Shown piece by piece: positions 12,802-60,550 of a stretch of DNA of 64,000 nucleotides. Source of the stretch: a virus (Duplodnaviria > Caudoviricetes); the IMG/VR virus record IMGVR_UViG_3300037448_000016, positions 1-64,000 of that record; one strand, given 5' to 3'. Within the stretch, counting starts at the first letter, position 1; each line of letters starts with the position of its first letter. A program made the translations under genes and the position numbers. The notes below the pieces were generated by a model, which was given only the letters and a program-made list of their open reading frames with translations, was not told the origin of the DNA and did no database searches.

Positions 12802-13581
12802 CTAGAAGGGGACGTCCGACTCCCTGATCGAATCGACCGGAGCGCTGGCCGGGATGGCCGCCCACGGGTCTTCGTTCTTCGCGGTGGCGGGCGTGGCCCA
12901 CGGGTCGTCACCGAGGCTGGCCGCCGGGGCGGCAGCCTTCGCTTCGGCCACGTAGCGGTCGACCACCGCGAGGGTTTCGGGAGTCGGCATCTCGATCTTC
13001 ACCGAGAAGCGGTTCGTCTCACCCTCGTTGCCGCCCTTGTTCGGCTCCCGCTTGTCCAGCCGGACCGAGAACTGCATCCCTGGCAGCGTTGCCCGCTGCC
13101 CGAGCGCCTTCAGGGCCTCGTTGAATTTGATCGGGATGTCCGGTCCGTCGATGAAGTACCGGCGCAGGCCGTCGTCGACGAACTCTGGGTTCTCGTTGGC
13201 CCGCTCCTTCGCCTTGCCGGAGAAGAACTCCTTGGCGCGGAAGGTGGTCAGCACGGTCAGAACCTTCATCGGCACGCCCTGGGCTTCCTTCAGCGCGGCG
13301 TCACCGTGGGCCCGAGCGAACTCGGCCTCGGTCATCGGGCCACGGTTCGGGTCGCTCTGCGGGGGCCACACCAGGAAGCCCTGCGGCGCCCCGGCGGTCT
13401 TGTCACGACCCTTGCCCCGGCGCTGCTTGACCTCGTACCCCTTTTTGGGGGCCGCGATCGGAGCCGGGGGCAGGATGATCCCGGTGAACACGTCACCCGG
13501 ATCGGAGTACTTCCAGGAGACAGCCTCGGGACCAACGGCCCCGCCTTCGCTGTCGTCCCAGTCATCACGTAGTTCGGCCAT
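12802..13581 (-). CDS. probable single-stranded DNA-binding/annealing protein
   Basis: Acidic flexible tail with DDPW, EDPW and terminal DVPF; located among replication genes. Confidence 0.6.
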   Translation of the reverse strand: MAELRDDWDDSEGGAVGPEAVSWKYSDPGDVFTGIILPPAPIAAPKKGYEVKQRRGKGRDKTAGAPQGFLVWPPQSDPNRGPMTEAEFARAHGDAALKEAQGVPMKVLTVLTTFRAKEFFSGKAKERANENPEFVDDGLRRYFIDGPDIPIKFNEALKALGQRATLPGMQFSVRLDKREPNKGGNEGETNRFSVKIEMPTPETLAVVDRYVAEAKAAAPAASLGDDPWATPATAKNEDPWAAIPASAPVDSIRESDVPF

Positions 13582-53843: not shown

Positions 53844-55526
53844 TTAGTACGCGCGGGCCTTACCCTTGGCTCTGGTGAGGCGCCGGGCCGGTCGCCATGC
53901 GTCAGGACCGATGGCGTGAAGATCGGCGGCTGCCTCGTGGGCCAGGGTATCCGCCATCGCGATGTCAATCTTCTGGTGTGCGCTGGGCTTGCCCAGGATG
54001 TACTTGTCGCCCGGCTTGGCCACCTTCCGCGCTGAGGAGATGTGCAGCGCGGCCACCGCGTCCGCGTCGTGCGTGCTGCGGCCCGATTTCAGGTCGTTGA
54101 AGGCCCGTTTCAGCGCGAGGAACATGGCATCGATGCGCCAGGTGTTCCACTCGAAGACCTCCTCCTCGCCGTACGCCAGGGCCCAGTCACCGATCTCCGA
54201 GCGCCAGTCCCTCGGGTCGCAGTAGAAACGCCGCAGCCGGTATCGCGTGGCGATCTCGTCCACGCACGCCTGCACTTCGCCGCGCGGGATGGAGCCGCCC
54301 CACTCGGCCGGGTTCCAGTAGGCCGGGCGCCGGTCGGGGCCGTAGTGCGGGGTGAAGCGGTAGCCGTCCTGCGTCTCCAGCCGGATCGCGGTCCAGTCGT
54401 CGTTCTCTGAGCCGTCGAAGCCACCGGCGACCGCCGTGCCGTCCGGCGGCTCGGGGCGGGTCTTGTCCTCGTGAGCCTCCCAGAGCGCGTCCTCGATCCA
54501 CTGGCCGAGGCCCGCCACGATCCGGTTGCCGTAGAACCGCTCGGCCATGCCCGGGTCGGTCAGGATGATCTCTTCGGCCTCCGCGTTGACTGCGGACAGG
54601 TCGACCCACCACGAGCCCCGGTAGACGTGCCGCAGGATGCGCATCCGCTCGCGCTTGTCGGTGAACGACAGGTGCGCGGGGGCGAGCCGGTGCAGCCGGA
54701 AGATGTCCTTCTTCACCCGGCTGGACAGTTCGGTCTGCTGGGCCACCGAGTTCTCGGACGGATCCCAGCCGTTGGTCGTCTCCACCACGCGCCCGGCCAT
54801 ACCGGAGACACCACGGCGCTGGGTCTGCGCGACCTTCACCATGTTGCCGCCCTTGCCGTCTTTCGACATCGGCAGCCACAGGCCGACCTCGTCCTGCGGG
54901 ACGAACGTGACGCGCTGGCCGAGCCGGGACTGGTTGTTGCTCGTCACCCGGTCGATCCGGCCGTCTTCCGGCAGCCGGATGAACTCCTCACCGGTGCGGG
55001 GGATGACGTTGGTCAGCGGGCCTTTCTCGATCATCGGGCGCAGCGCGTCCCAGACGTTCCCGGCCTGTTCCTCGGAGAAGGCGGTGATCTGGATCAGCGG
55101 CGTCGGCCGGACGGCGCCCATCGGCTCGCCGCGCTCGTACTCGTACTCCCAGCCGCACGGGCAGCCGTTGTCGTCGCAGCGGTAGACCTCGCCGCCTTCG
55201 GCCCAGCCCGCGAACATGCTCGGGCCGACCGCTTCCAGGCAGCACTGAGCCGCCGTCATCGGGCCCTTGCCCGCCTTCTGCGGCATGACGACCTGCGAGC
55301 GCCGGTACCAGAACGCCGGGGCCCCCACCGCCGGGGAGCGGGTCAGACGCGCCGTCGGCTTCACCCGGTAGTGGTTGAGGAAAAACCACTCCTGCCAATC
55401 GGCCAGAAGATACGGCTCACCGGCCGAAAACTGGTCCGGGATAACGCAGTGCGCTTCCACCCAGTCGACCGTGATGAACATCGTCGGCCATTCGACGACG
55501 AACTGGTCCGGGTCTTGCGGCGGCAT
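53844..55526 (-). CDS. terL: terminase large subunit
   Basis: PQKAGKGP Walker A, IQITA.SEEQA, FVPQDE, GFDGSENDD.TA nuclease, KID..MA..LA. Confidence 0.92.
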   Translation of the reverse strand: MPPQDPDQFVVEWPTMFITVDWVEAHCVIPDQFSAGEPYLLADWQEWFFLNHYRVKPTARLTRSPAVGAPAFWYRRSQVVMPQKAGKGPMTAAQCCLEAVGPSMFAGWAEGGEVYRCDDNGCPCGWEYEYERGEPMGAVRPTPLIQITAFSEEQAGNVWDALRPMIEKGPLTNVIPRTGEEFIRLPEDGRIDRVTSNNQSRLGQRVTFVPQDEVGLWLPMSKDGKGGNMVKVAQTQRRGVSGMAGRVVETTNGWDPSENSVAQQTELSSRVKKDIFRLHRLAPAHLSFTDKRERMRILRHVYRGSWWVDLSAVNAEAEEIILTDPGMAERFYGNRIVAGLGQWIEDALWEAHEDKTRPEPPDGTAVAGGFDGSENDDWTAIRLETQDGYRFTPHYGPDRRPAYWNPAEWGGSIPRGEVQACVDEIATRYRLRRFYCDPRDWRSEIGDWALAYGEEEVFEWNTWRIDAMFLALKRAFNDLKSGRSTHDADAVAALHISSARKVAKPGDKYILGKPSAHQKIDIAMADTLAHEAAADLHAIGPDAWRPARRLTRAKGKARAY

Positions 55527-57921: not shown

Positions 57922-58236
57922 CTAGACGCGCGAGGTCGGCTCACCAGCCGACACCACGATCTCGGTCACCTCGCCGGTCACGACGTCAATCGCCAGGCTG
58001 CCCTGGAAATTGACCGTGCCGTCGCCGTCCGGGTCGTCGTTCACGGTCACGACGGCGGTGCCGAGGGTTCCCGTGGTGACGACCAGCGCGGTGCCGTCGC
58101 CGTTGTCGGTCAGGGTCAGGATCGACTCGTCGTCCACCGTGAACGCCAGGCCGGTCGGCTGGATCGGTACCGGGTTGCCAGCGGCATCCACACCGGAAAC
58201 GGACAGGGTGACCTGCTGGGAATCGAGCAGTTGCAT
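57922..58236 (-). CDS. small Ig-like acidic protein (the ORF may extend to 58488)
   Basis: RBS AGGAG before MQLLDSQQVTLSV..DAAGNP; beta-sandwich pattern. Confidence 0.7.
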   Translation of the reverse strand: MQLLDSQQVTLSVSGVDAAGNPVPIQPTGLAFTVDDESILTLTDNGDGTALVVTTGTLGTAVVTVNDDPDGDGTVNFQGSLAIDVVTGEVTEIVVSAGEPTSRV

Positions 58237-58844
58237 GGTGACGTCTCCTAGGTGAGCGGAACTCGCCGGGCGGTGCTTCCGCTTCCGGCGGTGAGGGTTT
58301 CCAGAGAGTGGGCGGCTGGTGACAGGACCGATCGTCCAATGCACCCCTCCACGGCGAGGCGGGCCCGCGAGCGGGACAGCGGTCGTCGTGGTGGTCACCG
58401 TCCAGCCGAGCGGGAATTGGCTCGACAGGTCCATGAGTGGCAATTCGATGACGCACCTCCCGGTAGCGAAATCAGGGTGCCACAGCAACGGCCGAACGGG
58501 CGAGTACGGACACAGAAACGGCCCACCGGGGTCGAGTCCGGTGAGCCGTCCTGCCAGACAGATAACACGCTGTCAACCGTGGCGTTTACCGGCCGCTCGC
58601 CCTGTCCGCCGTGCGGCTACGATCCAGTCATTGACCGGGCGCGATGTCGCAACGGTTTCCAGATCTGGGATCCTACACCGGATGGTGCCCGGAGCGCACC
58701 CCGCCGGGCCGGGTGGAACGACGGATCTGGAGCACCACTCCATCACCGTCGAGTGCTGGGCCGCGATCCGGGTTCCACCCCGGGCCGACCGTATGGCGCT
58801 CAGTTCGCAGTCTCTGGCCTTGCGGCGTAGTGCTGCTCACCTTC

Positions 58845-58907
58845 TGCGTGCCCCTGCCGGTCTCGAACCGGCTCGACGGGTGCTCCACCGTCTTTAACCT
58901 AATGGGC
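58845..58907 (-). ncRNA. tRNA-like module (T-arm GCCGG-TTCGAGA-CCGGC, stemless D-loop)
   Basis: GCCCAT/AGGGGC acceptor-like stem, TAGGTTAAA, GACGG/CCGTC arm. Confidence 0.5.
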
Positions 58908-59084
58908 GCGTCCGCCCGGGGCTTGCGACCGGCGGTAGGCACCGGGAGGAACCGAAGTCCCCCATCGGGGAGACGCTATGCGCCCCGAACCCATACCACC
59001 GGCCCACCAGGCACTGCCGTCCTCGGTCTCCGGGTCTGGAACCAGGTTCCTTTACGGCTGGACCTACACGCGGCAGTGCTTGGC

Positions 59085-59159
59085 TGGTGGAGCCCCAGGG
59101 AATCGAACCCCAGTCGGTTTCCGCCGAGATAACTCGGCCCCCTGCTGCCAGCGTGCCCC
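59085..59159 (-). ncRNA. tRNA-Ala-like / tmRNA tRNA-like-domain RNA with encoded ACCA
   Basis: GGGGCAC...GG-TTCGATT-CCCTG-GGGCTCC-A-CCA; G3.U70 pair; no canonical D stem or 7-nt anticodon loop. Confidence 0.65.
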
Positions 59160-59230
59160 TTGACCCTCAGCGTCCGCCGGAGGATCGCTCCAACGCTGCG
59201 AGGGTACAGCCGGTTGGGGCTGCGAGACAC

Positions 59231-59271
59231 AGTCTTCCACGCTTGACTGGACGCTGTCAAGGTTTTGTCAA
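59231..59271 (-). promoter_or_regulatory. tandem TTGACA x2 (11 bp apart); promoter TTGACA-N18-AAGACT
   Basis: Direct reading. Confidence 0.55.
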
Positions 59272-59774
59272 TTGCCAATGCGGTCTCGCTTGTCCAGGTT
59301 GCAGCCCAAATGAGCCAGTTGGACATTGGCCAGCACGTGCTTGCCACCGCGCGAAATCGGGAACCGGTGATCGAGGCTTTTGCTCGCTCGATCCGGATAC
59401 TCCAGCGTCATATCCACCAGTCCGCCGCAGAGACGGCACGTCCAGCCGTCGCGGCGGGCGACCTCCGTCAGCAGGATGCGCTCACCGGAGTCCATCTGTG
59501 CTCGGCGCCGGTGGTAGGCATCGCGGCGCCGGTCATTCCAGCCACCAGCCGATTCGTACTCGGCCGCGTAGTCCCGAGGCGGACGTGACTCTTTCAGGTG
59601 GGTGTTGCAGAGACCTTTCGCGCGATGCGGCCGGTTGCAGGATTTCCGCGAGCAACGGCGGGGGTTCGCTCGCTCCTGGCATTGCTTGCAGCAGTACAGC
59701 CTGGGGCGGCCAGATCCGGTACGGAATGGGAGCAAATTGGCGCATGGAAAGGCTTGACAGGTCGTTGTCGTCAC
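59268..59774 (-). CDS. HNH endonuclease (packaging-associated type)
   Basis: RDGWTCRLCGG...SLDHRFPISRGG.H...NVQLAHLGCN. Confidence 0.85.
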   Translation of the reverse strand: MTTTTCQAFPCANLLPFRTGSGRPRLYCCKQCQERANPRRCSRKSCNRPHRAKGLCNTHLKESRPPRDYAAEYESAGGWNDRRRDAYHRRRAQMDSGERILLTEVARRDGWTCRLCGGLVDMTLEYPDRASKSLDHRFPISRGGKHVLANVQLAHLGCNLDKRDRIGN

Positions 59775-60145
59775 GGCTTCAGCCTACCAGTTCACGCTCC
59801 CCCGTGCGACGCCCCGACAATCAACTGACAACTGACTATTTGAACCAACTTGTGGAAAAAGTGCTCTCCCCCTTAGGTCCAGGCGCGCGAGGCGGGGAGG
59901 GGGCGCCCCCCAGGGTGGGGCCCGAGCCGAGCCGGAGCCGCAGCCCCGAGGCGCCCTGTGGTCAGCCGCTTGACAAGCCGTGGTCAGCCGTGAGAGGGTG
60001 GCCCCATGCCGCAGTGAGGGGCACCCGGAAGGGGCTCGCACAGCAGCAGCAGCACCCCCGCTGCACCCCTGCACCGCACGGAGCCTCGCTCCCTCTGCAC
60101 AGCACGGGTCCGGAGGGGCAGGCACCACAGCACGGCAAGGCAGGC

Positions 60146-60176
60146 TTGACAAGCCCCTGACAAGGGCTGGTAAGGT
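60146..60176 (+). promoter_or_regulatory. promoter TTGACA-N19-TAAGGT
   Basis: TTGACAAGCCCCTGACAAG repeat. Confidence 0.6.
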
Positions 60177-60410
60177 ACGACCAGCACCACCGAGGACCGC
60201 ACTACATGCAAGAGCCGTGTGCCGAAGGCGCCCGTGAGCGGACCCCCTGCGACAGGACCCCCTTGTCGCTAGCAGGGACCTACGCTCCGAGCCACGCTAG
60301 GCCGTACGGAGGGTGAGGGTTCCCAACGCTGAAACGCGGGAACGCCGTAACCGACCACAGGGGAGTCCTGTGGGAGGGGCGTTCAAACCGGGCGGACGGA
60401 ACGCGATCCA

Positions 60411-60463
60411 CCCCCCCGGACCTACGGAACACGGTAGGCGGGCTGCGAGAGCCGCCGGGGGGG
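60411..60463 (+). repeat. diverged copy of the three-way-junction element
   Basis: CCCCCCCGG/CCGGGGGGG, CCTAC-GGAACACG-GTAGG, GGC-TGCGAGA-GCC. Confidence 0.55.
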
Positions 60464-60475
60464 CTAGTCAACGGC

Positions 60476-60505
60476 TTGACAAGCCGCTGACAAGCACGCT
60501 AAGGT
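60476..60505 (+). promoter_or_regulatory. promoter TTGACA-N18-TAAGGT
   Basis: TTGACAAGCCGCTGACAAG repeat. Confidence 0.75.
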
Positions 60506-60550
60506 TCCACCACGACGACGACGCACCGACACCGCCCCTGGAGGCAACCA

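Follow-up and report, generated by a model that had tools for sequence, protein, structure and literature searches.

The soil phage analyzed here encodes, between an HNH gene and its late genes, a 75-nt RNA that ends like a tRNA and appears to lack a working anticodon arm. Is this RNA a detached piece of tmRNA, a tRNA in decay, or a molecule with a use of its own? An earlier note on the DNA had likened it to an isolated tRNA-like domain (TLD) of tmRNA. The source is a 77,934-bp IMG/VR virus record rated complete, with 127-bp direct terminal repeats and a G+C content of 66%; "the window" denotes the whole stretch of DNA that was analyzed (64,000 nt), which is the first 64 kb of the record. The large terminase (TerL; 53844–55526, minus strand) is ~55% identical to Arthrobacter phage terminases, the matches to cultured phages are all to actinobacteriophages (1,586 of 1,586), and the stretch occurs only in DNA contigs of three soil metagenome runs, no RNA data set being listed among its sources. 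The phage appears lytic because a domain search of the complete 77.9-kb genome found neither tyrosine nor serine recombinases (PF00589 and PF00239), and as a whole it looks like a lytic-type soil actinobacteriophage. A search of the phage genome found no SmpB gene, and there is no tRNA gene at all in this phage, unlike those relatives that have tRNA-Met.

Anatomy and setting of the 75-nt RNA

The RNA gene occupies positions 59085–59159 of the minus strand, precisely as the earlier note had placed it, and comprises 72 nt to A73 plus an encoded CCA, as read directly. The acceptor 5′ strand GGGGCAC (59159–59153) pairs with GGGCUCC (59095–59089) through G1–C72, G2–C71, a G3·U70 wobble, G4–C69, and C5–G68, followed by an A6×G67 mismatch and a C7–G66 pair; with A73 at 59088 and the CCA at 59087–59085, the 3′ side of the acceptor spans 59085–59095. 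The T-arm (59096–59112; UGGGG/UUCGAUU/CCCUG) carries a GGUUCGAUUCC-type loop. The acceptor GGGGC/GCUCC-A-CCA with its wobble and the UUCGAUU loop, all described in the note, were found on direct reading, and so was the 6-bp, UUAU-capped hairpin in place of an anticodon arm (GCCGAG-UUAU-CUCGGC, 59138–59123), which is regarded here as a degenerate anticodon arm. It lies between a 14-nt D region (59139–59152) without a conserved stem and a 10-nt linker resembling a variable loop (59113–59122). The D region had been called unpaired, and this holds for the hairpin fold; the window copy, however, could instead form a 4-bp D stem (UGGC/GCCG) together with a weak anticodon stem (anticodon CGG) that would replace the hairpin. 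Relative to the hairpin fold, this alternative cloverleaf is disfavored by 9.4 kcal/mol, and the orthologues do not share it. The window has a single occurrence of the T-loop word GGTTCRAWTCC (0.13 expected), and a composite pattern of acceptor, T-loop, and 3′ strand occurs once in the window and in 0 of 100 shuffles; because of the latter result, the RNA is not a chance pattern. The fold energy of the RNA alone is ordinary (z = −0.78).

ARAGORN with default settings called 0 tRNA and 0 tmRNA genes (permuted forms included) in the window and the whole genome, and its relaxed thresholds gave mostly noise. RF00005 had no match to the RNA at E ≤ 10, and no Rfam family matched it at the gathering thresholds; in E-value mode, only sub-threshold fragments of mascRNA, tmRNA, permuted tmRNA, and Y RNA appeared. 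The similarity to the mascRNA-like tRNA mimic (RF01684; 20.4 bits versus a gathering score of 42.5) is a likeness of shape only. The central hairpin loops of the window copy and of one orthologue are 4–6 nt long, and the anticodon readings conflict among the orthologues. Judging from these features, the anticodon arm is probably unusable and the RNA is predicted to be incapable of reading codons, in agreement with the earlier note. The same note had denied it a tag function, and no tag reading frame ending in the ...(A/L)AA manner was found within 59300–58440. A split or permuted tmRNA that would use a second GGGGCACGC at 58857–58849 was considered and rejected, as it gave no plausible tag frame and no ARAGORN call.

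An HNH endonuclease gene (59268–59774, minus strand; Pfam HNH 1.6e-5, PHROG 338 9e-18) lies 109 nt upstream on the same strand, and the first late-operon ORF (57922–58488, minus strand) begins ~600 nt downstream. Little coding signal is present in 58490–60550 except in the HNH gene, and there is none in 58490–59084 (minus strand), the structured region that leads from the RNA to the first late gene. The ~770 nt of 58490–59260 (minus strand) are far better folded than 20 shuffles (z = −4.1). Within this structured region, ARAGORN at -ps90 gave a noise-level "tRNA-Pro(cgg)" at 58931–59022, in the very part that is exchanged in the soil relative described below. A second T-arm-like hairpin, GCCGG-UUCGAGA-CCGGC, is located at 58849–58875 (minus strand) and is followed after one base by a repeat of the first nine bases of the tRNA-like RNA, the GGGGCACGC mentioned above. 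The hairpin and the repeat may have arisen when the tRNA-like gene was partly duplicated; neither a matching 3′ acceptor/CCA nor a tag frame was found for the repeat. A scan of 58300–59900 detected no sigma-70 promoter. Two TTGACA words (59254–59270) sit in a hairpin, CUUGAC...GUCAAG (59242–59270), directly after the HNH stop codon.

Orthologues and selection on the helices

TerL-based retrieval gave 34 related viral loci. In a BLAST search with the 2-kb intergenic region, almost nothing was alignable except the tRNA-like RNA itself in L010 (924–989). A motif scan added L013 (434–503), to which the metagenome locus L058 is identical, so that the distinct orthologous sequences number three (window, L010, and L013). 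Exact and degenerate pattern scans of viral sequences returned no orthologue beyond L010 and L013, and the metagenome pattern scan returned L058 and unrelated tRNA-like sequences. Among cultured phages, the region had no megablast match, and no blastn match covered at least 80% of the RNA, the matches being to the T-arm only.

In L010 and L013, a genuine tRNA-Met(CAU) precedes the RNA by ~100 nt, and in L058 an HNH gene also lies upstream of it. The gene order is HNH gene, tRNA-Met (in the relatives), tRNA-like RNA, and late genes, and the position is considered orthologous because the HNH gene is also upstream in L058. Only tRNA-Met is present at the locus in L002, L008, and L009, and L012 has tRNA-Met and a different odd tRNA-like gene. 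No copy of the RNA was found in these four or in a complete 80.7-kb relative when five full records were searched with our own model R1, an unspecific model with which true tRNA-Ala genes score 30–40 bits. From its patchy occurrence among the relatives, the RNA is an accessory gene, its site being a tRNA locus of variable content. In the relatives, whichever tRNA or tRNA-like gene comes last has GCACGATAT, possibly the −10 region of a late promoter, directly behind it in every case; the motif is absent from the window.

Several further features of these loci were observed. The tRNA-Met(CAU) genes at L002:1086–1159, L008:889–962, L010:747–820, L013:246–319, and L012:1441–1517 have an A1×C72 mismatch. 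The odd gene of L012, the closest relative (TerL 89%), is 81 nt long (1251–1331) and combines an alanine anticodon loop (CGC) with G3–C70, the opposite of the combination in the window RNA; its D region is similar to that of the window (CUG..GGCAGC). In L013 (4515–6782) and L014 (2889–5156), the match to TerL residues 144–560 spans 2,268 nt instead of the expected ~1,250 nt, which implies that the terminase gene holds an insertion of ~1 kb (an intein or an intron/homing element).

The window and L010 have a TerL identity of 72%; their RNAs match at every position (42/42 nt) of both acceptor strands, A73, the entire T-arm, and the 5 bp at the core of the central stem. Their unpaired parts differ in both length and sequence: the D region has 14 versus 11 nt, the hairpin loop is UUAU versus GUCAAA, and the linker has 10 versus 7 nt. 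Across the three orthologues, the acceptor 5′ strand with G3 and the mismatched A6 and the 3′ end GGGCUCCA are invariant. The D region (11–15 nt) varies in sequence except for a UGG/GG motif, with the UGGC/GCCG pairing being possible in the window copy only, and the linker (7–10 nt) conserves only its last C. The encoded CCA and the GAC preceding the T-arm are likewise peculiar to the window copy, and L010 and L013 run on with CGC instead of CCA. When folded singly, each of the three sequences gave the acceptor, the central hairpin, and the T-arm, the hairpin being part of every minimum free energy structure. The T stem of L013, AGAGG/CCUCU, carries five substitutions, all of which preserve pairing (5/5; U·G to A–U, G·U to G–C, and G–C to A–U); if placed at random, this would have P ~0.0125, a covariation statistic that is thin with three distinct sequences only. 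These T-stem changes could predate the loss of decoding.

The surroundings of the RNA have changed much more. The flanking noncoding DNA is unalignable between the window and its relatives, and the HNH protein of L058 is just 44% identical to that of the window. In a soil relative from run X2 (~90–97% identical), 59017–59168 is kept with three substitutions and the flanks differ by 8–11%; the adjacent 93 nt (58923–59017) are replaced by 47 other bases. From these sequence comparisons, we conclude that the RNA helices are very probably under purifying selection. This selection seems to have gone on after decoding was lost, as the window and L010 copies both already have noncanonical loops. The invariance of G3·U70 is indistinguishable from that of the whole acceptor stem.

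Relation to tmRNA and to tRNA-Ala

The tmRNA model RF00023 scored 26.6 bits (global) and 18.1 bits (cmscan) on the RNA, compared with a gathering cut-off of 47 bits. The alignment begins at an internal GGGGCC (59141), a 5′ start that the orthologues lack, and deletes nine consensus positions of the tmRNA D-loop; its score comes from acceptor, T-arm, and ACCA positions. L010 reached 11.5 bits and L013 had no match. Sub-threshold matches also occurred in archaeal control genomes, which should be without a tmRNA gene, and true tRNA-Ala genes had no match in the one viral record searched. The junction of the tmRNA D-loop with P2a is a known contact region of SmpB; its motif GG(A/U)UUCGAC is absent from the window, L010, and L013. 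The D region and the linker, which correspond to the SmpB contact area in the TLD of tmRNA, are the least conserved parts among the orthologues. Because of this low conservation and the missing motif, titration of SmpB is doubtful for the window lineage. The check proposed in the earlier note therefore gave a divided answer, with nothing from default ARAGORN and an RF00023 match that stays below threshold.

A closely comparable molecule is known. Mycobacterium phage DS6A was listed as "TLD only" by Hudson, Lau and Williams in 2014, and a similar molecule strongly inhibits tmRNA, perhaps via SmpB titration (PMC4131195). Inhibition of the endogenous tmRNA of E. coli by the DS6A form has been reported (PMC11915505). 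We located the DS6A RNA (tmRNA Website tmID 11587) at JN698994:28478–28560, where it has no annotation; its RF00023 score is 43.2 bits. Both RNAs occur in actinobacteriophages, are 70–85 nt long, and have a GGGGC.../...GCUCCA acceptor with G3·U70, A73, and a UUCGAUU T-loop. Both are without a D stem and have a capped helix in place of the anticodon arm or P2; neither contains a tag frame, and neither is annotated or found by ARAGORN. However, DS6A retains the tmRNA D-loop signature (GGUCGAC), which the window RNA lacks, and has a perfect 7-bp acceptor, in contrast to the A6×G67 mismatch. The 18–27 bits of the window RNA, moreover, are obtained only from a different 5′ start. Detectable sequence homology between the two is limited to generic tRNA features, and the aligned center of the DS6A-like set is too heterogeneous for a discriminating model. 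The comparison with a tmRNA TLD made in the earlier note is thus borne out in the build, which is that of the DS6A RNA; the link to tmRNA itself is not supported, given the low RF00023 score and the deleted D-loop signature.

Other RNAs resemble it in part. CDS-less tmRNAs of ~65 bp have been reported in plastids, and those of jakobid mitochondria and Mallomonadaceae plastids share with the window RNA a ~65-nt tRNA-like domain without a tag frame; they differ in being organellar and in co-occurring with imported SmpB (PMC11915505). They are traceable to tmRNA by homology, which could not be demonstrated for the window RNA. Further GGGGCCG...GGGCUCCA elements of similar build are found in GC-rich viral contigs (L118, L131, and L138) and an AT-rich one (L146). 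The stable RNAs C and D of phage T4 (species 1 and 2) also have tRNA-like ends and adjoin tRNA genes in a tRNA cluster; they are larger (~120–140 nt) and belong to another phage lineage, and to our knowledge they have no decoding role. The class of anticodon-less alanine-acceptor RNAs is thus one already known, of which the window lineage is a variant failing the tmRNA-specific features.

Some unusual loci were noted in the course of these comparisons. In the 41-kb GC-rich viral contig L118 (record G010), two sub-threshold RF00023 matches (13018–13093 and 13369–13408) lie ~280 nt apart and may be two tandem TLD-like genes. A 33-kb GC-rich metagenome contig (L105:3672–4067, minus strand) has three tandem aberrant tRNA-like genes, one with G3·U70 and no anticodon arm, one with G3–C70, and one 85-nt "tRNA-Gly." Seven metagenome loci (L039, L044, L055, L076, L088, L091, and L092) form an AT-rich family of 72–73-nt GGGGCA(A/G)...GGGCUCCACCA RNAs, which are uncalled by ARAGORN and adjoin tRNA-like matches; this family is another anticodon-less alanine-type lineage.

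The features that the window RNA shares with tRNA-Ala and with alanine-accepting minihelices are the five acceptor pairs from G1–C72 to C5–G68, A73, and a canonical T-arm. It differs from tRNA-Ala in having no conserved D stem, no RF00005 match, and no default ARAGORN call, and in the anticodon loop of 4–6 nt, as in L010. The earlier note had set against its own reading a degenerate tRNA, recognizable by a normal anticodon arm in homologues. On this point the orthologues are split: the L010 loop is noncanonical, but the central arm of L013 is compatible with a 5-bp stem that contains one mismatch and closes a near-normal 7-nt loop, GUUGCUC, in which U33 is followed by the alanine anticodon UGC. 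The window loop (GUUAUC with the closing pair opened) is one substitution and one deletion away from it. The GC-rich viral contigs L124 and L147 contain near-canonical phage tRNA-Ala genes that share the 3′ end GGGCUCCA. The L013 loop, with its U and UGC, indicates a degenerated tRNA-Ala and descent from a phage gene. Based on these sequences, the most likely ancestor of the RNA is a phage tRNA-Ala(UGC), of which the D stem and then the anticodon loop disappeared while the top half stayed selected; it looks like a worn-down tRNA-Ala rather than a tmRNA piece.

Such a descent brings up the possibility that the gene is a functionless pseudogene and that what remains is merely the slowest-decaying part of a former phage tRNA. 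The short distance between the window loop and the U33-UGC loop of L013 fits this explanation, as do the patchy distribution among relatives and the nature of the locus, a variable tRNA site with other odd tRNA-like genes (e.g. L012:1251–1331). Simple decay agrees poorly, however, with helices that are fully identical between the window and L010 next to scrambled loops, at a TerL identity of only 72%, and with flanking intergenic DNA that can no longer be aligned. The X2 relative, which retains the RNA even though the adjacent 93 nt were replaced, also speaks against it. We consider a pseudogene unlikely.

Possible roles of the RNA

Here, we tentatively propose, at slightly less than an even chance, that this is a functional, selected, non-decoding tRNA-like RNA gene whose product would be co-transcribed, excised, charged with alanine, and used as a mimic acting on host factors. 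The proposed mechanism, inferred from the anatomy of the RNA and the DS6A precedent, has four steps. The RNA would be part of minus-strand transcription that also covers the HNH gene and the late genes. Its excision would follow the tRNA route, in which RNase P makes the 5′ end and trimming the 3′ end, with CCA being encoded in the window copy and presumably added by a host enzyme in the orthologues. In the third step, the host AlaRS would charge it with alanine through G3·U70 and A73. G3·U70 minihelices are substrates of AlaRS, and the invariance of G1–C72, G2–C71, G3·U70, G4–C69, and A73 in the three orthologues fits the alanine type. Since codons could not be read, the RNA would therefore act as a mimic, and in the last step it would occupy host factors that recognize the acceptor/T-arm half of alanyl-tRNA or tmRNA, in the manner reported for the DS6A RNA, an inhibitor of trans-translation. 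The A6×G67 mismatch in the acceptor and the patchy distribution count against this functional-mimic reading.

A more specific version is a dedicated decoy or sponge, an alanylated but never decoding RNA that would capture host factors acting on the acceptor end of tRNA. Candidate targets are the tmRNA–SmpB rescue system and the abortive-infection toxins of actinobacteria that modify the acceptor end (nucleotidyltransferase/pyrophosphokinase). We regard this version as distinctly doubtful. If it were true, mimics derived from tRNA-Ala and from tmRNA would have converged on one counter-host strategy.

Alternatively, the element could act in cis, as a cleavage site for RNase P or RNase Z that parts the HNH mRNA from the long late-operon leader, in which case alanine charging would be irrelevant. 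tRNA "punctuation" separates transcripts elsewhere, and an acceptor, a T-arm, and A73 are the minimal substrate of RNase P and 3′ processing; these are the conserved parts of the RNA, which is flanked on its own strand by the HNH gene and the late genes. The constant GCACGATAT directly behind the last tRNA or tRNA-like gene in the relatives also suits a processing signal. Against it, this motif is missing from the window, several relatives have only tRNA-Met or nothing at all there, and the window and L010 also share an identical stem in the central hairpin, a part dispensable for RNase P. A role restricted to processing is thus improbable, although not strongly so.

Integration can hardly account for the RNA. 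The ends of tmRNA and tRNA genes on the 3′ side are classic integration sites (PMC4131195), and the 3′ 31 nt of the RNA are similar to the tmRNA consensus 3′ end, as would be expected of an attP site or of a host gene end captured by site-specific integration. However, the matching acceptor 5′ strand is conserved as well. The RNA is not attP because the complete genome encodes no integrase of the tyrosine or serine type and because the exact 24-nt word from the T-loop to A73 occurs in no actinobacterial genome, its single occurrence among ~185,000 species genomes being in an unrelated Clostridium tRNA-Phe. A decoding tRNA with a proline anticodon (CGG) and alanine identity, inserting alanine at CCG codons, is also very hard to sustain: ARAGORN at -ps90 reports tRNA-Pro(CGG) exactly over 59085–59159 and a D stem with A14, G18, and G19 can be drawn in the window copy, but the same setting yields 14 calls in 78 kb, mostly within genes, the cloverleaf is the energetically inferior fold described above with an A×A mismatch in its anticodon stem, it is impossible in L010 and has a different anticodon in L013, and RF00005 has no match.

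The published anticodon-less alanine-acceptor RNAs come from a single phage, DS6A, and from a few organelles, and the case described here adds a lineage missed by standard annotation. This lineage very probably stayed under selection after the loss of decoding and seemingly arose from tRNA-Ala, not from tmRNA. This suggests that the "top half of alanyl-tRNA" is in itself a useful object for phages, and it supports the testable idea that phages routinely tamper with the machinery that handles alanyl-tRNA and tmRNA.
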